DNA from: Pedobacter sp.
Lineage (GTDB): Bacteria > Desulfobacterota > Desulfuromonadia > Desulfuromonadales > Syntrophotaleaceae
DNA: 30,381 bases
Reading direction: 5' to 3'
NCBI GenBank assembly: GCA_050253415.1
Contig: JBFWJC010000011.1
Coordinates: 1 to 30,381 of the forward strand
The stretch's first letter is position 1. Each line of letters begins with the position of its first letter. A model generated the notes under the pieces. The model was not told the origin of the DNA and ran no database searches. It was given only the letters and a program-made list of their open reading frames with translations. The position numbers and the translations under genes are program-made. Shown piece after piece: positions 1 through 8,023 of the stretch.

Positions 1-27
1 TACCGGAGGCGGAGCCGATGCGTCGGA
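1..27 (-). promoter_or_regulatory. Candidate element-sigma promoter TCCGAC-N16-CGGTA (leftward)
   Basis: Minus strand reads TCCGAC (27-22), 16 nt, CGGTA (5-1), immediately after the sigma stop codon. Same motif and spacing at 4251-4277. Confidence 0.55.
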
Positions 28-29
28 GA

Positions 30-614
30 TCACAGGTAGTCCTCGAGCCCGGCCTCGCGGAACGCGTCCCGGAGCTTGCTCAGCCGGTCGTAGAGGGTGG
101 TTCTGGGAATGCCCATCTCCCGGGCGATTTCGGCCATGGTGCTGTCGTGCAGGCGCACGCACAGATCCCGGAGCTCTTCCGGCAACAAGGCGATGGCCCG
201 GTCGAGATCCATGCGGATCTCATGGGCGAGACGCTCCCTTGTCTCGCGGGTGCCGCCTCCCAGGGAGCCCTCGCTGTCCAGGAAGTCGATCCGTTCGGTG
301 GTGTCGCCTTCGCCGTTGTCGAGGGGTTCGTTGAGTGAGGTTTGGCAGAGCCGCCAGTCCCGGCATTGGGCGAACCGGGCCTCCAGAATGGTGGAGATGT
401 GACGTTCGACGATCCGGGCCATGAAGGTGGTCTTCTTGGCCTTGGCGGGATTGAAATGCCGCATCCGCTGCAGCAGATCGATCATCAGTTCCTGTTCGAG
501 GTCGGGTCTGTCGTCCTCGGTGAATCCGGCCTTGCCTACGAGTTGACGTGCTTTGTGCCGAATGAGGTCGGCGGCATACTTGTCGATGCCGTCGTAAGAA
601 TTCTGTGAAACCAT
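30..614 (-). CDS. ECF-like sigma-70 family RNA polymerase sigma factor (element-encoded)
   Basis: 194 aa. Region-2-like segment DLEQELMIDLL...FNPAKAKKTTFMARIV and region-4 HTH STMAEIAREMGIPRTTLYDRLSKLR. RBS GAGGAGG 5 nt before ATG. Confidence 0.85.
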   Translation of the reverse strand: MVSQNSYDGIDKYAADLIRHKARQLVGKAGFTEDDRPDLEQELMIDLLQRMRHFNPAKAKKTTFMARIVERHISTILEARFAQCRDWRLCQTSLNEPLDNGEGDTTERIDFLDSEGSLGGGTRETRERLAHEIRMDLDRAIALLPEELRDLCVRLHDSTMAEIAREMGIPRTTLYDRLSKLRDAFREAGLEDYL

Positions 615-676
615 CGGGGCCTCCTCGGAGCGAGGAGGAGGTCCGCGTGGGTGTCGGCACGGGCCAGATCACAGGA

Positions 677-760
677 CAAAGCTGTCGCGTGGGCGAAGGG
701 GTCGCAGGTACGCCGCCAATTGCCGTATTCGGCTCGGCGACACCCACAACAGCCTCCGCC
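677..760 (-). ncRNA. Putative structured leader RNA upstream of the sigma gene (copy B of shared hairpin)
   Basis: GCUGUUG/CGACAGC and UGGGUG/CGCCCA stems with an inner GCCG-AAUA-CGGC hairpin. 15/16 nt shared with 4352-4367. Confidence 0.5.
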
Positions 761-809
761 ATGCGTCCAGCTTGTTGTCCAGTGTCTAAGGGTTCAGGTC
801 GTTACGTGT

Positions 810-1130
810 TCAGGCTGCCCGTTCCTCGATGCGCATCAGGAACGGGAGACCGTGCTTGATCTCGAGCAGGCAGACTTTTCCGCTGCCCATCTGCGCGAGG
901 TGCTCCAGCAGCGCCACGACCTCTTGCTTGAGAATGAAGTCATCCTGGTCGCGCTCGGGCCGGGGACCGCTTTGTCCGCCCAGCTTGATCTCGCGCTCGA
1001 TGACCGTGTCAGGGGTGAGTTCCGGCTCGCCGTCGCGGACCGGAATGTTGGAGATGCGGCCGAAGTTGATGTCCTGCATCAGCTCGATGAGTCGCCGCTT
1101 CGGTGGGGTGAGATTTTTTTTGTTCATCAT
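810..1130 (-). CDS. Small hypothetical protein (106 aa) co-oriented with the sigma gene
   Basis: Start reassigned to ATG at 1130 because of RBS AGGAGG (1135-1140). GC-rich coding-like codon usage. Confidence 0.75.
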   Translation of the reverse strand: MMNKKNLTPPKRRLIELMQDINFGRISNIPVRDGEPELTPDTVIEREIKLGGQSGPRPERDQDDFILKQEVVALLEHLAQMGSGKVCLLEIKHGLPFLMRIEERAA

Positions 1131-1199
1131 TCTGCCTCCTAAGCATGGTTTGATGTTTCTGGAGGGCAGAATAAATCCGGTTTTCATGAAGCCCTGTTT

Positions 1200-1329
1200 T
1201 CTGGACTTGTCTTTGGACTGTCCAAAATGAGCGACCCCAAAAAACAAAAGGCCGTCAGGTTTTTCACCTGCGGCCTCGGTTGCGCGGAAATATTTTTTAA
1301 GAAAAGTTTCTTTGGACTGTTATTTGGAC
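1200..1329. repeat. T(T/C)TGGAC boxes: two tandem pairs plus one inverted copy
   Basis: TCTGGAC 1200, TTTGGAC 1212, GTCCAAA 1220, TTTGGAC 1311, TTTGGAC 1323. 12-bp direct repeat TCTTTGGACTGT at 1210 and 1309. Confidence 0.7.
1240..1276 (-). terminator. Intrinsic terminator after the lexA-like operon
   Basis: Minus strand AGGCCGCAGGT-GAAAA-ACCTG(A)CGGCCT followed by TTTGTTTTTT. Confidence 0.65.
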
Positions 1330-2393
1330 TTGACTATGTTTTCGGGAAAACGCACGCCTTTCTCCTTGCGAAAGTCTATAGCAACACCTAGTTTTTTCCG
1401 GATATTATTCAGTTGTCGTTGCATACGGCCTGGGTCTCCCGAAGCGGGAAAATACTCATCTTTCTTCCACGCACACGCATTCATAAAAGTCTTATGCCGT
1501 ACCCATCCGTGGCCGATCTGATCGTAAAGAATTTCCATGATCTTGGCGATGATGGACTCATTGCGGACAAAAATGTGTCCTTTGTCCACCCCGTTCACGA
1601 ACCAGTGGACTCTTTCGCCGATTTCTTTTCGTTCGAGAACGATCTTATCCTCTTCGGTTATTGTATTTACAGAATCGTCTCTCGATTCGTCTTCCCGCAG
1701 TGCCTCTCCAGCGTGACCAATGAAATGTGCAACTTGCAAATCCGCTTTCTTGGCAATGGCATGCCAATCCAGCAAGAAAGCACAAGAAGAGTTTGTTGTG
1801 ATGGCGACCATAATAATTCCAAGTCGTTTCATCTGTTGGCGGATTTCTGGGGAAAGTGCGATGCCGCCTGGGGTTAAAATGACAATCCCCACGGTATCAA
1901 GCTCTCGGTCAAGTCTCCTGCATCGAGCAATAACATCATCTTCATCCAGGTTTGGAATCGAAAGAAAAATTTCCAACGTCCCGAGGCTATCAAGTGTCTT
2001 AAGCCCCATAGGAATCAGGCCGTGATGATTCGCAAACCCGCTGCCTTCAATGCCATTCGCTTGGCGGATCACTGTCGTGAGTTTTGGAAGGGAGAGTTCA
2101 TACTGCCGGACGTCGTCCTCGGTGAGCGGGATCGGATCGAAATAATTGTCCTCATCAGCAACCCCAAATATACCCTTCGAGGTCTGGCGGACAATCAGAT
2201 CGCCACCTAGGGGAAAACGTTTCGGTCGAGGAATCTCCGTTGCTCTTGATGTTTCCCTCAGGATTCCTTTCTCTCGAAGGACACGGAACTCATCTTCTGG
2301 GTAACACTCCAGTTCCCCGTGCAGAAAGACAGGACTCTCGACTTGGTCGAGACGCTGAAAGATGAAGTTGAGGAGCCCCTCAGTCAACGACAA
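1320..2393 (-). CDS. Hypothetical protein with probable C-terminal OmpR-like winged-helix DNA-binding domain
   Basis: 357 aa, overlaps the upstream gene end. C-terminus IMEILY...QRQLNNIRKKLG-VAIDFRKEKGVRF resembles the Trans_reg_C recognition helix and wing. Confidence 0.7.
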   Translation of the reverse strand: MSLTEGLLNFIFQRLDQVESPVFLHGELECYPEDEFRVLREKGILRETSRATEIPRPKRFPLGGDLIVRQTSKGIFGVADEDNYFDPIPLTEDDVRQYELSLPKLTTVIRQANGIEGSGFANHHGLIPMGLKTLDSLGTLEIFLSIPNLDEDDVIARCRRLDRELDTVGIVILTPGGIALSPEIRQQMKRLGIIMVAITTNSSCAFLLDWHAIAKKADLQVAHFIGHAGEALREDESRDDSVNTITEEDKIVLERKEIGERVHWFVNGVDKGHIFVRNESIIAKIMEILYDQIGHGWVRHKTFMNACAWKKDEYFPASGDPGRMQRQLNNIRKKLGVAIDFRKEKGVRFPENIVKSK

Positions 2394-3507
2394 TCCCCCA
2401 ATTCTTCAGATATCGGAATACGTCTTCGGCATGTGTGGCCCGTTTGAACTTGATTTTGTTGGTGCCGGACAATTCGATGCGTTTTCCCCGTAGGTCATCG
2501 GGGAACATGATTTTAAATACGGCCCGTCGGATCGTGCCACCCCCCAAACGCTTACGCAGGTAAGTCTTTTCAAGCGTCTCCATCACATTCCTGGACCGCA
2601 CTATAAATGATGGGAACGGCGCTTGCGGAAGGTTGAAATGGATCTCGGCGAGGATGACTGAATGATCTTCGTCAACCGGCATGTCAAAGTCCTCCTCCGC
2701 GATCCTGGCGAGGTTTAGTCTATCTGCTGATCCGGGCGAGTCGAAAAAGTCTTCGTCTTTGAGGCAGCACTCAGCAAAAGCCTTGCGGAGAGCCGTCTCT
2801 TCTTTTTCAACAGCAGCCTCAATTTCAATCTGGCCGGTCTCGTTGTTATAGCTGATGAAATCTTGCTGGGCCGGACGTAGGATGGTCGGGGAGACTTTCG
2901 GACTTGCAGTGGTTCCTTTGAATATCAGTTCCGCTTTGACCCGCTTCTCGTGGTAAATGATGAAATTAGTGTATGCTCCTTCTTGATAGTAGCGGACGAG
3001 AACACGGTCACTGTTTTTATGATTTTTGAAAATCTCGGCAAGTTTTGATTGAAAGACTCCGGAAGCTGTATCTACGTCTGCAATGGCTGCTGCAGTCTTC
3101 CCGCGAAATATGGTGAATCGTTCTGCACGCCAAAGGGTATACCGATCATATGCGAGATTAAAAGCCTCCTCATTTTCAGTTCTGACCTTAAGGCTCAGGC
3201 ACTCGACCGGCAACTCCCCGTTTCCTTCCGGCGAATAATTGCATTCCTGACAAGCTGCCACGATGTCTTCATGACCTCGCTCTGTACAGAGGTCATAAGC
3301 CATATAGAGACTCTCAAGCAGATCATCCTTGCTATAGCCATCGCCACTAACGAGGAATTCTTTGAAGAGGGGAACATCAAGCGATGCGGAATCAAGCTCC
3401 AGATGGCCATTCCAAAGTTCAACGAAACTACGGAGAATGGGCTCATAGCCTTGGAATTTATCCAAAAACCGCTCTGCGTTAAAGGTTCGATGTTTCGGCT
3501 TCCCCAT
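2380..3507 (-). CDS. Hypothetical protein (375 aa)
   Basis: Long ORF with RBS GGAGG overlapping the lexA end. No motif recognised. Confidence 0.75.
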   Translation of the reverse strand: MGKPKHRTFNAERFLDKFQGYEPILRSFVELWNGHLELDSASLDVPLFKEFLVSGDGYSKDDLLESLYMAYDLCTERGHEDIVAACQECNYSPEGNGELPVECLSLKVRTENEEAFNLAYDRYTLWRAERFTIFRGKTAAAIADVDTASGVFQSKLAEIFKNHKNSDRVLVRYYQEGAYTNFIIYHEKRVKAELIFKGTTASPKVSPTILRPAQQDFISYNNETGQIEIEAAVEKEETALRKAFAECCLKDEDFFDSPGSADRLNLARIAEEDFDMPVDEDHSVILAEIHFNLPQAPFPSFIVRSRNVMETLEKTYLRKRLGGGTIRRAVFKIMFPDDLRGKRIELSGTNKIKFKRATHAEDVFRYLKNWGIVVD

Positions 3508-3512
3508 TTTTC

Positions 3513-4145
3513 TTACCTCCCTTGTTTATGCCTAACGGCAACGACCTTACCCAACACGCGAAGATCATCCTCCGGCCTGATCCGGATCTTTCTTACCTCC
3601 GGGTTCTCGGGCACCAATTCGATGAGCTCGTCTTTGATTTTCAGGCGCTTGACAGTCGCCTCGTTGTTGAGCAGCGCGACAACGATGTCTCCGTCCTCGG
3701 CGATGGGCTGCTGCCGCACGATGATCAAATCACCATCGTTGATACCGGCACCGACCATGCTGTCACCCACCGCACGGAGTGCGAAGTGCTGACCGGAACG
3801 AACGACGTTCGATTCGACCAGTACTTGGCCGATGATGTTCTCCTCAGCCAGGATGGGGCAGCCAGCCGCCACCATACCCACTACAGGTACTGAAACCAGG
3901 GAGGCAGCCATCTCGCTGGGACGGCGGGCGACGGCAATGCCGCGAGACTTCCCGTCCTCTCGCTTCAGGTATCCCTTGCGCACCAGTTGGTTGATCCGGT
4001 CGTGGGCACTCGCCGGGCTGATTTCAAAGATCTCGCTCAGTTCCTTCACCGTTGGAGGGAAGCCCTTGGCATCGACAAAACGACATATCGCTTCAAGCGT
4101 TTTCCGCTGCAACGGCGTTATCTCATCCGTCTTCGCTTTGCCCAT
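3513..4145 (-). CDS. lexA: LexA/CI-type autocleaving repressor (element-encoded)
   Basis: N-terminal wHTH GFPPTVKELSE, Ala-Gly cleavage site VAAG, catalytic Ser (GDSM) and Lys (ATVKR). ATG at 4145 with GGAG RBS. Confidence 0.9.
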   Translation of the reverse strand: MGKAKTDEITPLQRKTLEAICRFVDAKGFPPTVKELSEIFEISPASAHDRINQLVRKGYLKREDGKSRGIAVARRPSEMAASLVSVPVVGMVAAGCPILAEENIIGQVLVESNVVRSGQHFALRAVGDSMVGAGINDGDLIIVRQQPIAEDGDIVVALLNNEATVKRLKIKDELIELVPENPEVRKIRIRPEDDLRVLGKVVAVRHKQGR

Positions 4146-4199
4146 GGCGTCTCCATTTCTGTTGAAAGACAAAAAGGCGCAATGCGCCAGCAAATCCTA

Positions 4200-4229
4200 A
4201 TAATATAAACCTGATGCATATCAGGTCAA
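4200..4229 (-). promoter_or_regulatory. Sigma70 promoter of the repressor overlapped by a palindromic operator
   Basis: Minus strand TTGACC-16-TATATT (or -18-TATTAT). Perfect palindrome ACCTGAT-GCAT-ATCAGGT at 4209-4226. Confidence 0.7.
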
Positions 4230-4250
4230 GAAATAATCTCACACCTGATT

Positions 4251-4277
4251 TCCGACACTTCCACGAGCCCCTCGGTA
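4251..4277 (+). promoter_or_regulatory. Candidate element-sigma promoter TCCGAC-N16-CGGTA (rightward, towards recombinase operon)
   Basis: TCCGAC 4251-4256, CGGTA 4273-4277. Identical spacing to the copy at 1-27. Operator half-site ACCTGAT at 4243-4249. Confidence 0.55.
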
Positions 4278-4340
4278 GGTAAGGCCTGAAGAATGCCGGT
4301 TTGAAACCGGACGAGCAGTTAGAAACCAGATAACCGACCA

Positions 4341-4400
4341 GAGGCGGAGCTGAGGCGGTTGTGGGTGCCATCGAACGCGCATCCCGACCGCCACCGTTTT
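4341..4400 (+). ncRNA. Putative structured leader RNA (copy A of shared hairpin)
   Basis: GGCGGUUG/CGACCGCC and GGGUGC/GCAUCC stems spanning 4354-4392. Confidence 0.5.
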
Positions 4401-4446
4401 CTGGCATCCACACCATCCAGTCCCCCGGTCCCACCGGAGGTGTTCG

Positions 4447-4689
4447 ATGTTGGATGTCCAGGAAATGAATGATGGGCCGGGGACGGATGACCTTGGCGAA
4501 AACGGCAAACCCGGCCGCTTGTCGGGTGAGGCGAGGCTCCAGTCAGCCGCCTCCATTCTGGCCACGGCGATCCTGCGCCGAAAGGCAAAAAATGCATGTG
4601 TGGGCAATGAGTTAGAGGTTTTCGAAGATTCTTCCCCTGTGCTCGGAGAAGGACTTGATTCATTGCCGGAACAGAGCATTCATTCATGA
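4447..4689 (+). CDS. Small hypothetical protein upstream of DUF2924 gene
   Basis: 80 aa with RBS GGAGG at 4436-4440. Contains an amphipathic helix RLQSAASILATAILRRK. Confidence 0.55.
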   Translation: MLDVQEMNDGPGTDDLGENGKPGRLSGEARLQSAASILATAILRRKAKNACVGNELEVFEDSSPVLGEGLDSLPEQSIHS

Positions 4690-4723
4690 CAACTCGTCCG
4701 GAAACCAAAATAAGGAGTTGAAA

Positions 4724-5248
4724 ATGAATGAGTTACAGAACGCCGCCACGGGCGGCAAGAATCAGGACCGAACCCGAAACTCGGTCCTTCGGCAGATGGC
4801 TCTGCTGCAATCCATGTCCCTGGAGCAGCTCCGGGAAAAATGGCTCGACCTCTACGGCGAAGAGCCGCCCCAGTACAAGAAGCAATTCCTCATCAAGCGG
4901 CTGGCCTATCGCATCCAGGAGCTTTTCTACGGCGGACTGTCCGAGCAGGCCAAGGTCCATCTCCAGCAGGCCGCCAAGGATGACCCGGTCGCCACTGTCA
5001 ATCGACGCATCCCAGAAGAGCGGAAATCTAACGAGGCGATCCTGCCCGGAACCAGACTGGTGCGGGTCTGGAACGACCGGCGCTATGAGGTGATCGTCCT
5101 TGCCGATGGCTACGAGTTCGAAGGCCGCACCTTCCGGTCGCTCAGCGCGGTGGCCAGGGAGATCACCGGGACGCGCTGGAACGGTAAGGTCTTTTTCGGG
5201 CTGAAGAAGGTTTACGGCAGAAAAGCCGAGGGAGGTTCGGATGCTTGA
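4724..5248 (+). CDS. DUF2924 domain protein
   Basis: LREKWLDLYG, RLAYRIQELFYGGL, PGTRLVRVW and SLSAVAREITGTRWNG motifs. RBS AAGGAG before ATG 4724. Overlaps the recombinase start. Confidence 0.85.
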   Translation: MNELQNAATGGKNQDRTRNSVLRQMALLQSMSLEQLREKWLDLYGEEPPQYKKQFLIKRLAYRIQELFYGGLSEQAKVHLQQAAKDDPVATVNRRIPEERKSNEAILPGTRLVRVWNDRRYEVIVLADGYEFEGRTFRSLSAVAREITGTRWNGKVFFGLKKVYGRKAEGGSDA

Positions 5249-6827
5249 TAACAGCAATGTCGCGCCGGGCAAAAACAAAACCCTGCGCTGTGCCATCTAC
5301 ACCCGCAAGAGCCACGAGGAAGGACTCGAACAGGAGTTCAACTCGCTGGATGCCCAACGGGAGTCGGCGGAACACTATATCGAGGCCCAGAGGATGCGTG
5401 GCTGGACGGCTCTGCCGGATCGCTACGACGATGGTGGTTTCTCCGGTGGGAATATGGAGCGCCCGGGGCTGCGCCGACTGCTGGCGGACATCGACGCCGG
5501 GAAGATTGATGTGATCGTGGTCTACAAGGTCGACCGCCTGTCCCGCTCGCTACTGGACTTCATGAAGATGATCGACCTCTTCAACGAAAAGGGCGTCAGC
5601 TTCGTCTCGGTCACCCAGCACTTCAGCACCACCGATCCCACCGGCCGGATGTTTCTCGGCATCCTGATTACCTTCGCCCAGTACGAGCGGGAGGTCATCG
5701 CCGAACGTATCCGGGACAAGGTGGCGGCAGCCAAGCGCCGGGGAAAATACTGCGGCGGCGTACCCATTCTCGGATACGATGTCGACCGGGATAACAAGAA
5801 GCTGCTGGTCAACCCCGATGAAGCCAGGACAGTGCAATACATTTTCCGCCGCTTCATCCAGATCGGATCGGCCAAAAAGCTGGGCCAGGAATTGAACGAA
5901 CAGGGATACCGCACCAAGGCCTGGACCACCAAGAAAGGTAAGGTTCGCGAGGGCTCCGAATGGAACACCGCCCATATCTACCGGCTGCTCAACAACCGGA
6001 TCTATATCGGCGAGATCGCCCACAAGGATCGCAGCTACCCCGGCGAGCACGAGGGGATCATCGACCGGGCGACCTGGGACAAGGTTCAGGCCATCCTGGA
6101 GGACAACAAACCGGTCAAGGTGTCCATGGCCAGAACCAAAATGGTCGCCCCGCTGAAAGGCGTTATCCGCTGCGGCCACTGCGGCTGCTCGATGGGACCG
6201 ACCTACGCCCGCAAGAACGGCCGCCACTACACCTATTACATCTGCCAGAAGGACAGCAAGCGGACCGTGAGCCGATGCCCCCTCAAACGAATTCCCGCCG
6301 GGGACATCGAGCAGGCGGTGATCGAGCAGTTGAGCGCGGTGTTCCGCACACCGACGCTGGTGGCCAAAACTTACTTCGCGGCCCGGGACATCGAGCAGGC
6401 GGAGCGGGAGCGGCTGTTCAAGCAGAAAGCCCAACTCGAGATGGAGCTGTCGCAGGTGAGGGAGCAGGCACTCGAACTGATGAAACCCGGCAGCGATCAG
6501 CCGGGCAAGGCCGAGATGCTCACGACCGTCAACCGCCAGGCGGTCGAGCTCTCGAAACAACTGACGCACGTGAGCGAGCGATGCAGAGCCTACCGGGGGA
6601 ACAACATCACGGAACAGGACGTTTCGGAGGCCTTCCAGAATGTCGAGGGCTTCTGGGAGGACCTTTTCCCGGTGGAGCGAAACCGGCTCATCCGCCTCCT
6701 GGTGGATAAGGTGGAGATCCGCGAGACCGGAATCGATATGGAGCTGCGCACCAACGGGCTGACAACGCTCATCGCCGAGCTGGCTGGTCTGGCCTGCGAA
6801 GTCACCGAACGGAGGGCAAGCCGATGA
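5241..6827 (+). CDS. Large serine recombinase/integrase (resolvase + recombinase + Zn-ribbon + coiled coil)
   Basis: YTRKS catalytic serine, VYKVDRLSR, CGHCG...YYIC...RCP zinc ribbon. 528 aa. Confidence 0.95.
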   Translation: MLDNSNVAPGKNKTLRCAIYTRKSHEEGLEQEFNSLDAQRESAEHYIEAQRMRGWTALPDRYDDGGFSGGNMERPGLRRLLADIDAGKIDVIVVYKVDRLSRSLLDFMKMIDLFNEKGVSFVSVTQHFSTTDPTGRMFLGILITFAQYEREVIAERIRDKVAAAKRRGKYCGGVPILGYDVDRDNKKLLVNPDEARTVQYIFRRFIQIGSAKKLGQELNEQGYRTKAWTTKKGKVREGSEWNTAHIYRLLNNRIYIGEIAHKDRSYPGEHEGIIDRATWDKVQAILEDNKPVKVSMARTKMVAPLKGVIRCGHCGCSMGPTYARKNGRHYTYYICQKDSKRTVSRCPLKRIPAGDIEQAVIEQLSAVFRTPTLVAKTYFAARDIEQAERERLFKQKAQLEMELSQVREQALELMKPGSDQPGKAEMLTTVNRQAVELSKQLTHVSERCRAYRGNNITEQDVSEAFQNVEGFWEDLFPVERNRLIRLLVDKVEIRETGIDMELRTNGLTTLIAELAGLACEVTERRASR

Positions 6828-7246
6828 AAATGAAGCCGACCATTACCGTGGCCGACAACGGCAACCTGCAGATCCACATCCCGATGCTGATCCGGCGCAT
6901 GCGCGGTCGCAAGACGGTCATCGCTCCCCAGGCCCTGGATGGAGATGCCCCCGGGGCACAGGAGCCAGTGCAGTCCGCCGTCCTCCAGGCGCTGGCAAGG
7001 GCCTTTTCCTGGGCCGACATCCTCGAATCCGGCCAGATCAAGTCCATCAGCGAGCTTGCCCGTACCCTCGACGTCGATGGCTCGTATGTGGCCCGCATTC
7101 TCAAGCTGACGACCCTGGCCCCCGACATCGTCGAAGCCCTGATCAACGGCGAGGAACCCAACGGGCTCTCGTTGGCGAAGCTGACCCAGAGCTTCCCGGA
7201 GGACTGGGCCGAGCAGCGCCGCCAGTTCGGCTTCGCCACCGACTGA
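6824..7246 (+). CDS. Recombinase-associated HTH protein
   Basis: ATGA overlap with the recombinase. HTH SISELARTLDVDGSYVARILKLTTLAPDIV. Confidence 0.75.
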   Translation: MKMKPTITVADNGNLQIHIPMLIRRMRGRKTVIAPQALDGDAPGAQEPVQSAVLQALARAFSWADILESGQIKSISELARTLDVDGSYVARILKLTTLAPDIVEALINGEEPNGLSLAKLTQSFPEDWAEQRRQFGFATD

Positions 7247-7270
7247 CGACCGGACCGGAGACCGCCCCAG

Positions 7271-7303
7271 AGAGCCGACCATCAGCGTCGGCTTTTCTTC
7301 TTT
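7271..7303 (+). terminator. Intrinsic terminator of the recombinase operon
   Basis: AGAGCCGAC-catcagc-GTCGGCTTT followed by TCTTCTTT. Confidence 0.65.
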
Positions 7304-7605
7304 AGGGGGCAGGAAGCCGGAGTTGACCGCGCTTCTTTTCATGGCCGAGGCGGGCAATTTCGAAAAAAACGTCCGGTTGCGGCATCGAACGATGACCTAA
7401 GACAACCGCCCAAAATGGCAACGAGCCGCAAACCCATATCAATCAAGGATGTAGCTTTCCGGACGCGCTTCGGACTTGGTCCGGAGAAAACAGAGAATCA
7501 GGGGCCAAACAGAGAAAGGAAGGCGGGAGGATGGGGAGAATCGATGGTGCAAAGAGGTGCTTTGGAAAGATGTGAAACGGGCGCAAACCCTTTAGAAACA
7601 AGGGG

Positions 7606-7653
7606 AAAAAGAAAACCCGTCACCCCGGAGAATGACCCCAGAGAGACGGGTTT
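7606..7653 (-). terminator. Terminator downstream of tmRNA
   Basis: Minus strand AAACCCGTC...GACGGGTTT long hairpin followed by TCTTTTT. Confidence 0.65.
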
Positions 7654-7665
7654 GTCTTTTTTAAA

Positions 7666-8023
7666 TGGTGGAGGTGGCGGGAATCGAACCCGCGTCCGAA
7701 AATCTTTCACATAAGGCTTCTACATGCGTAGTCGTTGTTTTAAATTTAACCGGATACAACTCCCATCGACAGGATGTGTATCAAGCGAGTTTACTTAAGT
7801 TTCGCTCTTGCGCCGTAAACACTCGCTCAAGCTAGCCCACTAAATTGACGTCTTAAAGCCCCGCGCAGGCGAAGAGACCCAAGACGAAGCAGCAATTAAG
7901 CTGCTAATGCGTACGAAACGTCAGTATCGGCGTTTGTATTGTTGCCAGTTTTTTAACGAGGCCAACTGGCGTCCCCGGCATGCCACCTTCGCTTCCAATC
8001 CCCGTCGAAACCGTGTCACCCCC
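7666..8023 (-). ncRNA. ssrA: tmRNA (transfer-messenger RNA), tag ADTDVSYALAA
   Basis: 5' GGGGGTGACACGGTTTCGAC and 3' GGTTCGATTCCCGCCACCTCCACCA. Tag ORF at 7931-7896 ends YALAA-stop. Lies directly downstream of smpB. Confidence 0.97.

Follow-up and report, generated by a model that had tools for sequence, protein, structure and literature searches.

Activators dedicated to the genes of one mobile element are known from several circuits: SetR controls SetCD, and through it int/xis/tra, in SXT/R391; PrtR controls PrtN, and through it the pyocin genes, in Pseudomonas aeruginosa; and Xre controls Xpf in the defective prophage PBSX. We know of no intermediate regulator feeding a private sigma factor in the SetR and PrtR circuits. 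As the available text of PMC6751061 describes it, pBS32 of Bacillus subtilis carries a LexA-repressed sigma factor, SigN, which has its own promoter consensus and a positive feedback. UviA/TcdR-family sigma factors occur on clostridial plasmids and phages, according to the accessible part of PMC4885068. Lambda RexA, encoded directly after cI in the same operon, is described in the available text of PMC11077077 as a structural relative of RdgC whose DNA binding is non-specific and which tips the switch towards lysis. The locus analyzed here occupies the first 7.7 kb of a 30,381-nt stretch of DNA (the window; contig JBFWJC010000011.1 of assembly GCA_050253415.1, deposited as Pedobacter sp.). It carries a phage LexA-family repressor, a 375-aa and a 357-aa protein encoded in the same operon, a small open reading frame (ORF) followed by a sigma factor of the extracytoplasmic function (ECF) type, and a recombinase operon next to a transfer-messenger RNA (tmRNA) gene (Table 1).

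The relay that would connect these parts, towards which as a whole we lean slightly, has four steps: i) in the lysogen the self-cleaving repressor would occupy a single operator over its own strong sigma-70-type promoter and keep the lexA-375-357 operon low; ii) cleavage triggered by activated RecA would derepress this operon; iii) the C-terminal winged helix of the 357-aa protein would bind TGGACT repeats flanking a terminator and turn on the weak promoter of the small-ORF/sigma operon; and iv) the ECF-like sigma would take the host RNA polymerase to TCCGAC-N16-CGGTA(A/G)GTAA promoters of replication, structural, other, and recombinase operons. Since such promoters are predicted on lytic and recombinase operons alike, excision and lytic growth would start together. 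The 375-aa protein, co-translated with the 357-aa protein, would probably modulate the third step by binding DNA, in the way RexA acts on the lambda switch. The original prediction, made from the sequence of this stretch, had drawn the chain from LexA-like repressor to winged-helix activator to private sigma factor to recombinase. Its three pairings of a regulator with a site survive comparison with relatives, and the chain is the simplest wiring that fits them. The LexA tier is not universal, however, and we infer that the 357-aa step is activating, what the 375-aa protein does, and in which order the events follow. The wiring is supported by the placement of the sites, because the operator is found only at its own promoter and the TGGACT boxes only between the 357-aa gene and the small-ORF/sigma operon, and because sigma-type promoters head the recombinase operon and further operons of the full prophage.

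Bases 1-7684 of the window are 99.57% identical to a contig of Desulfofustis glycolicus DSM 9705. Beyond the equivalent of window base 1, the D. glycolicus copy encodes a Cas4-like nuclease, an AAA_24-type ATPase, a DUF669-like protein, a RecD-like helicase, and a primase. Farther along come tape-measure-sized and tail-fibre-sized genes, and all are on the sigma strand, over ~60 kb. Because this near-identical copy runs on into replication and structural genes, bases 1-7684 are, as judged from sequence, the lysogeny-control and integration end of a ~60-kb temperate prophage, inserted at the 3' end of ssrA. Of the tmRNA-flanking element proposed at first, the location by the tmRNA stands; in view of the D. 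glycolicus copy, the element is a prophage and not a small island.

The sigma factor matches TIGR02937 over residues 16-187 of its 194 (3.9e-15, 55.8 bits against a cut-off of 42.9) and phrog_1740, "RNA polymerase sigma factor" (1.9e-25); its Pfam Sigma70_r2 and r4_2 matches are below the gathering scores. It has the layout by which ECF-type factors are recognized, the sigma-2 and sigma-4 regions only in a protein of ~200 aa. Family-model matches uphold this call as well as those of the LexA-like, DUF2924, large serine recombinase, and tmRNA genes. Two copies of TCCGAC-N16-CGGTA are present in the window, against 0.00 expected from 100 shuffles, and these two are among only four matches in the 4.1-Mb genome. 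The original prediction had noted that the pair points outward. Both sites are real, but the "genes left of the window" that one of them was to serve are missing from the assembly: window base 1 is the first base of the contig (C11 of its own assembly), and the remaining phage genes were found there neither by blastn nor by tblastn with the D. glycolicus ORFs.

The D. glycolicus copy shows what these promoters would serve. A scan of 70,305 bp, allowing one mismatch at most and spacers of 15-17, gave 14 matches. Seven are exact N16 sites (position and strand 32134-, 39110-, 47551-, 52958-, 60036-, 77039-, and 81263+), against ~0.03 expected by arithmetic, and two more (64977- and 66071-) have one mismatch and the extended consensus. 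These nine have in common ccTCCGACac...(c/t)tcCGGTA(A/G)GTAAc, in short TCCGAC-N16-CGGTAAGTAA; the other five, without the extended consensus, are probably chance matches. All nine sites are oriented as the neighbouring genes and seven of them lie 30-66 nt 5' of a same-strand ORF start. The site at 77039-, which is the 27-1 site of the window, heads the nuclease, AAA_24, helicase, and primase genes. In the full prophage, the sigma-type promoter thus stands before the recombinase operon and at least eight further operons.

The motif is also kept in relatives. Related sigma factors are encoded at 42 viral loci, and the promoter scan took in ten of them. The motif follows the sigma stop in 9/10, the exception being L051, whose sigma is 43% identical, and it stands 5' of the orf80/DUF2924/recombinase operon in all eight scanned loci that cover the region, in either operon direction. 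L005 has the site too: its recombinase operon faces the other way with respect to the lexA operon and still has CCCGAC-N16-CGGTAGGTA upstream. Four scanned loci carry a third copy ~9 kb downstream. In a clade with 70% sigma identity the two motif blocks are kept and the spacer sequence differs. In metagenomes the motif lies right after the sigma stop at all nine loci with a sigma at least 47% identical (47-51%); at the 15 loci with 25-30% sigma identity there is no such motif after the sigma stop and the next gene abuts. Failure of the motifs to recur in homologous elements had been set beforehand as grounds for giving up the proposal; sigma-type sites, boxes, and operator positions are all kept in relatives. 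These findings argue strongly for a predicted phage-specific promoter class that includes the integrase operon, and since motif and sigma co-occur, the phage sigma very probably reads the TCCGAC promoters.

That the motifs are chance matches picked after the fact is scarcely credible. They were defined from their own sites, an 11-base gapped pattern common to two positions in 7 kb is expected ~25 times by arithmetic, and TTTGGAC shows no overall enrichment in the window (7 copies vs 5.15 expected), four of its seven copies falling within the 118 bp of 1212-1329. This explanation is nevertheless refuted by the nine copies of the sigma motif in the prophage, with a longer consensus, and by their conservation in divergent relatives. 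Box and operator positions are likewise kept in relatives, and their sequences are unique in the prophage.

The 357-aa protein consists of a conserved N-terminal region of ~215 aa, with a winged-helix-like part and a weak nuclease-like fold, a disordered linker (residues 220-246), and a C-terminal winged-helix domain (residues 251-352). It matches no family in Pfam or NCBIfam (E<=0.01, Trans_reg_C included), PHROG, or PADLOC (E<=0.01). In the predicted structure (predicted local distance difference test, pLDDT, 79.8), residues 251-352 show the beta-sheet, three helices, and C-terminal hairpin of an OmpR/PhoB effector domain and resemble the DNA-binding domain of PhoP (2pmu_A: Z 8.8, root-mean-square deviation, rmsd, 2.9, 89 of 98 residues aligned). 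PmrA, CssR, GlnR, CpxR, KdpE, TcpP, ToxR, and CadC follow, and the top ~20 rows are all of the OmpR/PhoB type. Foldseek returns RstA (4nhj_B, prob 0.99), ToxR, KdpE, and CosR for the same domain. This predicted fold agrees with the winged-helix regulator that had been proposed from the sequence. There is no Response_reg match to indicate a receiver domain, and the protein is at most a predicted non-receiver member of this fold class, like ToxR, CadC, and the SARP proteins.

The sites assigned to this protein were described at first as TTTGGAC boxes that flank the end of its gene and lie 5' of the sigma operon. They are present there, and their core is TGGACT-N6-TGGACT, a direct repeat as is usual for the OmpR/PhoB fold. 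The distal pair is invariant in all six sequences of alignment A4, and the proximal boxes are kept in 6/6 type-1 intergenic regions with varying bases between them. TGGACT-N6-TGGACT has two sites in the 70-kb prophage, both beside the 357-aa gene, and three in the whole genome. The only other tandem TTTGGAC pairs of the genome are TTTGGACGGTCGTATTTGGAC at C6:164303 and C6:164603, 300 bp apart. No 375/357 homologues were found elsewhere in the window genome.

The pairing of regulator and boxes extends to the 357 family, which was examined through 64 homologues and 56 metagenomic loci collected with the N-terminal profile. The first ~215 residues are kept and are followed by at least four alternative C-terminal domains, each type with its own repeats just past the stop codon: AGTCCAAA twice in type 1; GCCAC-N6-GTGGC twice in type 2_403 (GCTAC/GTAGC in L077); GCGAC-N6-GTCGC twice in type 2_409; TTCCGGATTTC two or three times in type 3 (variant TTCGGAAA in L105); and CT(T/C)CGCTC four times with an 11-bp period in type 4. 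Variants within a type are found in L077, L072, and L105. Own-type boxes, counted over distinct sequences as at least two copies within -25 to +60 of the stop codon, are present in 4/4 loci of type 1, 7/10 of type 2_403, 7/8 of type 2_409, and 6/7 of type 3, with no cross-type case; the count is tempered by the boxes having been defined on the sequences counted and by the common descent of the members of each type. More independent support comes from L055-L060, where the intergenic region is ~93% identical to that of the window and the 357-type gene 73-79%, but the small ORF next downstream only 47%. The box sites therefore appear to be inherited with the regulator and not with the regulated genes. 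Binding of the TGGACT boxes by the 357-aa protein is likely on this evidence. The type-3 C-terminal domain looked by eye like a Cro/C1-type helix-turn-helix, which is not claimed, as Pfam gave no match at E<=0.01. Type-3 loci (L075, L084-L090, L104, and L105) also have an extra small ORF between the 357-family gene and the small ORF, similar by eye only to an AlpA/excisionase-type helix-turn-helix.

The two box pairs are separated by an intrinsic terminator of the lexA-375-357 operon, a hairpin followed by UUUUGUUUUUU, which is kept in alignment A4. The only conserved -10-like block, TTTATTCT, lies downstream of the boxes, and there is no consensus -35. Boxes 5' of a lone -10-like block without a -35 form the layout of a putative activator-dependent promoter, which suits activation. 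OmpR-family proteins can also repress. The 357-aa protein could thus be a second immunity repressor, or a Cro-like one, that blocks the small-ORF/sigma promoter in the lysogen and is inactivated by a signal, received perhaps through its N-terminal region or the 375-aa protein, LexA cleavage just resetting the operon. Gene order would place it in lysogens, as it is co-transcribed with the LexA-like repressor; one box pair is palindromic, as many operators are, and types 2_403 and 2_409 have dyad-symmetric units; and relatives of the C type, which have no cleavable repressor, would need another input. We find a repressor unlikely, because derepression upon damage would raise its level and so defeat induction, because the boxes lie 5' of the -10-like block and not over it, and because the solved proteins of this fold in the top rows are mostly activators on direct repeats.

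At the head of the proposed relay, the repressor matches TIGR00498 (1.9e-51, above the 110.95-bit cut-off), PF01726 (N-terminal winged-helix DNA-binding domain, 2.6e-14), and PF00717 (C-terminal S24 peptidase domain, 2.8e-33). It is 40% identical to the host LexA (C5:153671-154264). The motifs VAAG, GDSM, and VKRL align between the two, and we take them, from what is known of E. coli LexA, to be the Ala-Gly cleavage site and the Ser/Lys dyad. Both LexA domains and the cleavage motifs of the LexA-like repressor named at the outset are present, and so is the palindrome expected within its promoter, lying over the best of three sigma-70-like sites in bases 1-7700 (shuffles give 3.0, so the count itself is not significant). 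The palindrome overlaps the -35 and the spacer of this lexA promoter, and the half-site directly adjoins the -35 of the divergent sigma-type promoter. In the genome the palindrome occurs once; in the 70-kb prophage, even with two mismatches allowed, the operator stays a single copy, on its own promoter, with ~25 nt between it and that -35. Palindromes with 7-bp arms are expected about three times per 7 kb by arithmetic; the weight of this one comes from its position and from the conservation of that position with altered yet symmetric sequence, CTGAC-aagt-GTCAG in L005 and GACCTTA-cgtcca-TAAGGTC in L036. No operator was found at the sigma operon. Since the one operator is that of the lexA operon, the repressor is predicted to reach the lytic genes through this operon only. 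We infer that the repressor holds down this operon at the operator and that RecA-dependent cleavage lifts the repression. The host lexA promoter (C5:154265-154330; L108 2095-2160, minus strand) has three direct CTTACG repeats by a TTGACT -35-like hexamer, a candidate host SOS box unlike the phage operator.

The 375-aa protein is the most conserved member of the module. Its model (pLDDT 86.2; predicted template modelling score, pTM, 0.82) resembles CENP-N (6eqt_A, Z 9.9) and RdgC (2owl_B, Z 9.8, 217 aligned, rmsd 8.5). A second structure comparison gives 8ovw_N (Z 10.6) and 2owl_A (Z 10.2), and Foldseek gives 6.2e-4 against 2owy_A. CENP-N matches as well as RdgC does, and the high rmsd (8.5) implies that the domain arrangement differs from that of RdgC. 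No family match was found in Pfam, NCBIfam, PHROG, or PADLOC (E<=0.01), no match at E<=10 in a profile search of all PDB sequences, and none in any deposited phage record. The family itself is large, with 1507, 1004, and 336 cluster representatives at E<=1e-3, 1e-10, and 1e-30. It is patchy across phyla and present in 10/401 genomes sampled from the phylum, the window genome counted. In gene position and, by its model, in fold, the protein is an analogue of lambda RexA; it is not filed as a RexA family member. A complex predicted from the 375-aa protein and the first 225 residues of the 357-aa protein scored 0.00 (mark 0.32), which speaks neither for nor against an interaction. Two members of the 375 family of about double length, P0296 (727 aa) and P0298 (734 aa), have C-terminal halves with weak similarity to the 357 N-terminal region (hhalign E 0.026 and 0.005, probability 2-7%), and may be fusions of the 375 and 357 proteins.

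The slot directly after the repressor in the same operon is that of rexA-rexB in lambda, and an RdgC-like fold is also reported for RexA, as the available text of PMC11077077 has it. The 375/357 pair might then be exclusion or defence cargo expressed in the lysogen, with the small-ORF/sigma operon under other control. Close relatives have other gene pairs in this slot, one with a QatC-like protein (PADLOC QatC, 3.3e-53), and residues 100-220 of the 357-aa protein weakly resemble the nuclease domains of Card1/Can1-type effectors (Z 5.6-6.7). Such cargo is nevertheless improbable: neither protein matches a PADLOC model (E<=0.01), the invariant columns of the 357 family alignment contain no acidic/lysine catalytic triad, the gene order is kept across very divergent phages, and the DNA-binding domain of the regulator changes together with the repeats downstream. 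The roles are moreover compatible with regulation, since RexA itself biases the lambda switch. A reading of the pair as variable cargo, taken from the absence of the 357-aa gene at the viral loci, was largely dropped in view of the metagenome synteny and an intact lexA-388-378 operon.

The order 375, 357-family, small ORF, and sigma is kept in metagenomic loci down to 25-30% sigma identity. A 375-type gene is present in 54 of the 56 metagenomic loci; among the 32 that extend 1500 nt or more downstream, the small ORF and a sigma are each found in 22. The small ORF, 106 aa in the window, matches no family in Pfam, NCBIfam, PHROG, or PADLOC, and its Atlas neighbours are unnamed clusters, mostly viral. 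ECF factors are typically, though not always, autoregulated and co-transcribed with an anti-sigma factor; here the co-transcribed protein is this 106-aa one, and no sigma-type promoter precedes the sigma operon in the window. It lies beside the sigma gene in 38/42 viral loci; L031, L034, and L046 start at or just before the sigma, and L035-L047 keep the ORF too. Among 50,697 deposited phage records, the sigma has as its only relatives five Wolbachia phage WO records, at ~25% identity. A DUF2924/large serine recombinase module has reportedly been found in Wolbachia phage WO.

Several observations weigh against the relay. The sign of the 357-aa step is drawn from site geometry and circuit logic alone, and the -10 of the small-ORF promoter is weak and was missed by the promoter scan. 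Nine of the 32 loci have no detectable small ORF or sigma. A LexA-like gene lies 5' of the 375-aa gene in just 17/40 related loci with room for one; one locus has an XRE-plus-M78 peptidase protein in the LexA place. In C-type close viral relatives the LexA-like product is only a 77-aa DNA-binding domain that lacks the peptidase, so that these would not be inducible by self-cleavage. The 357-aa gene is found in none of the 42 viral loci, where the 375/357 pair is swapped for other gene pairs, and the second gene of the B type shows only a weak match to the 357 family (hhalign E 0.013, probability 3%). Finally, the copy in the window, a 7.7-kb end only, may be a remnant, or its assembly may be incomplete.

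Two kinds of pair stand in for 375/357. One comprises a 388-aa protein, 23% identical to the 375-aa protein, and a 378-aa partner; the lexA-388-378 operon is intact but inverted in the 70%-identity clade. In the other, a 262-aa protein is paired with one of 700 aa, and it is the N-terminal part of the latter that gives the QatC match. The set of 77-, 262-, and 700-aa genes is found in L010 (3096-6243), L014, L018, L021, L023-L027, L032, L033, L049, and L050. Several type-2_403 regulator genes contain, or are closely followed by, sequence that matches part of the 700-aa protein at ~30% identity. The C-terminal tail of the 700-aa protein also looks, by eye, like the type-2 tail of the 357 family. 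Each replacement pair has its own small-ORF upstream region.

In 5/8 of the sigma-less loci examined, the 357-family gene leads straight into replication genes, as would that of an origin-binding protein, which also counts against the relay. The repeats could on this account be replication-origin iterons or a partition site, the 357-aa protein an origin or centromere binder, and the 375-aa protein its partner. Tandem repeats of 11-12 bp do lie by a conserved A+T-rich stretch (CTTTTCTTAAAAAATATTTCC) directly 3' of the gene, and the titles of structure entries describe DNA binding by the CENP-N/RdgC fold. We nevertheless hold an origin or partition site to be very improbable: every top row for the C-terminal domain is an OmpR/PhoB effector, a transcription-factor fold; the gene is in the repressor operon, so that an initiator would be made in the lysogen; and the replication enzymes downstream vary (RecD-like helicase and primase, DEAD helicase, or prim-pol) whereas the 357 N-terminal region is constant.

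A broader suggestion, which we regard as rather doubtful, is that the 375/357 pair is a module, widespread among temperate phages but unrecognized, that decides between lysis and lysogeny. Its first part would be an RdgC/RexA-like DNA-binding protein, and its second a regulator in which a constant region for sensing or interaction, with an inactive nuclease-like fold inside, is joined to an exchangeable DNA-binding domain that recognizes its own repeat array. If so, the SOS signal would be combined with a second one, for instance from free DNA ends, the state of the RecA filament, or superinfection, and sigma expression and induction would need both conditions together. The DNA-binding domain and its repeats would then define immunity-like specificity groups, independent of the repressor.

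The recombinase of the divergent operon has the Resolvase, Recombinase, and Zn_ribbon_recom domains, the set of a large serine recombinase. Across 26 viral loci the 80-aa ORF that opens the operon keeps 61-100% identity; in L040 the figure is 35%, and a homologous ORF is readable in L036; it is a possible candidate for a recombination directionality factor. The 5' leader (4285-4446) contains a conserved hairpin for which Rfam has no family. The homologous stretch of L036 (1100-1210) has a hairpin followed by TTTTGTTTTT, terminator-like, and a T-run is present in the 70%-identity clade. Standing between the sigma-type promoter and the first gene, the leader hairpin may be an attenuator or a short RNA.

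Table 1. Coordinates of the features of the prophage end and its flank in the window (strand "." where none applies)
Feature	Position	Strand	Details
Sigma-type promoter TCCGAC-N16-CGGTA	27-1	-	2 nt past sigma stop; faces phage replication genes beyond contig start
ECF-like (group 4) sigma-70 family factor, 194 aa	30-614	-	TIGR02937
Conserved 106-aa ORF	810-1130	-	Ribosome-binding site AGGAGG; ATG at 1130; directly 5' of sigma gene
Proximal box cluster	1202-1226	.	TGGACT-N6-TGGACT (1202-1219) and palindrome TTTGGAC-T-GTCCAAA (1212-1226); 5' of small-ORF/sigma operon
Intrinsic terminator of lexA-375-357 operon	~1239-1277	-	Hairpin, then UUUUGUUUUUU; free energy (dG) -23.8 kcal/mol, z -3.24; between box pairs
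Distal box pair TGGACT-N6-TGGACT	1313-1330	.	12-bp period; covers stop codon of 357-aa gene (1320-1322)
357-aa regulator	1320-2393	-	Predicted structure and family alignment
375-aa protein, RdgC/CENP-N-like fold (predicted)	2380-3507	-	Frame overlaps 357-aa gene by 14 nt
Phage-encoded LexA-family repressor, 210 aa	3513-4145	-	Likely start ATG at 4145; ribosome-binding site GGAG
Sigma-70-like promoter of lexA operon, TTGACC-N16-TATATT	4229-4202	-	10 of 12 matches; 57 nt 5' of likely lexA start
Operator (predicted)	4209-4249	.	Palindrome ACCTGAT-GCAT-ATCAGGT (4209-4226) and half-site ACCTGAT (4243-4249)
Sigma-type promoter TCCGAC-N16-CGGTA	4251-4277	+	Heads orf80-DUF2924-recombinase-140aa operon
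Conserved hairpin in recombinase-operon leader	4330-4410	+	dG -34.9 kcal/mol, z -2.9
Conserved 80-aa ORF, first in recombinase operon	4447-4689	+	No family match (NCBIfam, PHROG)
DUF2924 protein	4724-5248	+	PF11149 1.6e-52; phrog_11806
Large serine recombinase (integrase), 528 aa	5241-6827	+	PF00239 1.4e-39; PF07508 7.1e-19; PF13408 1.2e-14; phrog_95 4.1e-129
140-aa protein, last in recombinase operon	6824-7246	+	phrog_14161 6.7e-56; weak ParB-like match
Terminator-like hairpin	7270-7296	.	3' of 140-aa gene
Right end of element	7666-7684	-	Identity to D. glycolicus copy stops at 7684
tmRNA, complete	7666-8023	-	Matches model positions 1-374 of 374; smpB next

The final 19 nt of the tmRNA gene come from the phage. 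In D. glycolicus, the same phage end abuts non-tmRNA DNA (L001 2690-2730), with no tmRNA nearby by ARAGORN, and the phage there is therefore at a different site. No duplicate of the attachment site was identified; when the genome was searched with the tmRNA 3' end, all that matched were short stretches close to one end of contig C6, taken here for tRNA-like similarity. Copies of the lexA-375-357 region are found at the DNA level in a Levilinea-labelled assembly (L002, 99.9%) and an Ignavibacteriaceae-labelled one (L004, 93.5%), and 97-98% protein matches in contigs labelled human gut metagenome (L052 and L053). Such near-identity under other labels means that the region has spread very recently or that contigs were mis-binned. 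The end of contig C7, both ends of C10, and the start of C8 consist of long arrays of tandemly repeated 7-nt units (CTTGTCA and ACCAGTC), which probably caused assembly breaks.

No published description of the module was found in the literature searched, which covers few subscription journals. Private sigma factors under LexA control and circuits from a cleavable repressor to an activator are already known. New here are the element-borne LexA paralogue, a middle tier of two unannotated families, exchangeable DNA-binding domains with matching repeats, and a predicted sigma regulon that includes the integrase operon. The proposal makes testable predictions, namely a phage-sigma promoter consensus with nine mapped sites and 4-5 regulator subtypes, each with a predicted operator, and D. 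glycolicus DSM 9705 is a cultured lysogen that carries the whole phage. If true, it would give a function to many unannotated prophage genes and provide orthogonal sigma/promoter and regulator/operator pairs, and the rexA position beside phage repressors would hold RdgC-fold proteins far beyond lambda.

The comparison with known systems brings out what is shared and what differs. As in the SetR and PrtR circuits, a self-cleaving repressor of the CI/LexA type would restrain a dedicated activator of excision or lytic-type genes; those circuits have two tiers and unrelated activators, the FlhDC-like SetCD and PrtN. The control of a sigma-like factor for late or effector genes by the element's own repressor would be shared with Xre-Xpf of PBSX and with UviA/TcdR. 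There, as far as these systems are described, the repressor is of the XRE type or the sigma of the TcdR group, and a 375/357-type module has no part. Like lambda as described, the locus has a predicted self-cleaving repressor followed by an RdgC-fold protein in the same operon. On the other side, RexA was not among the structures that the 375-aa protein matched, nor are the two alike in sequence, the next gene encodes a soluble, predicted DNA-binding regulator of 357 aa and not a membrane protein such as RexB, and there is no divergent cro-type gene. The proposed logic is that described for pBS32 SigN, in that damage lifts LexA repression of an element-borne sigma that transcribes its own element's regulon. 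In the available description of pBS32, host LexA acts directly on the sigN promoter and SigN stimulates its own expression. The present element, in contrast, encodes a LexA paralogue of its own, and neither an operator nor a sigma-type promoter stands before the sigma operon in the window. Two proteins and a repeat array would instead be placed between repressor and sigma, and the sigma regulon would extend to the integrase operon.

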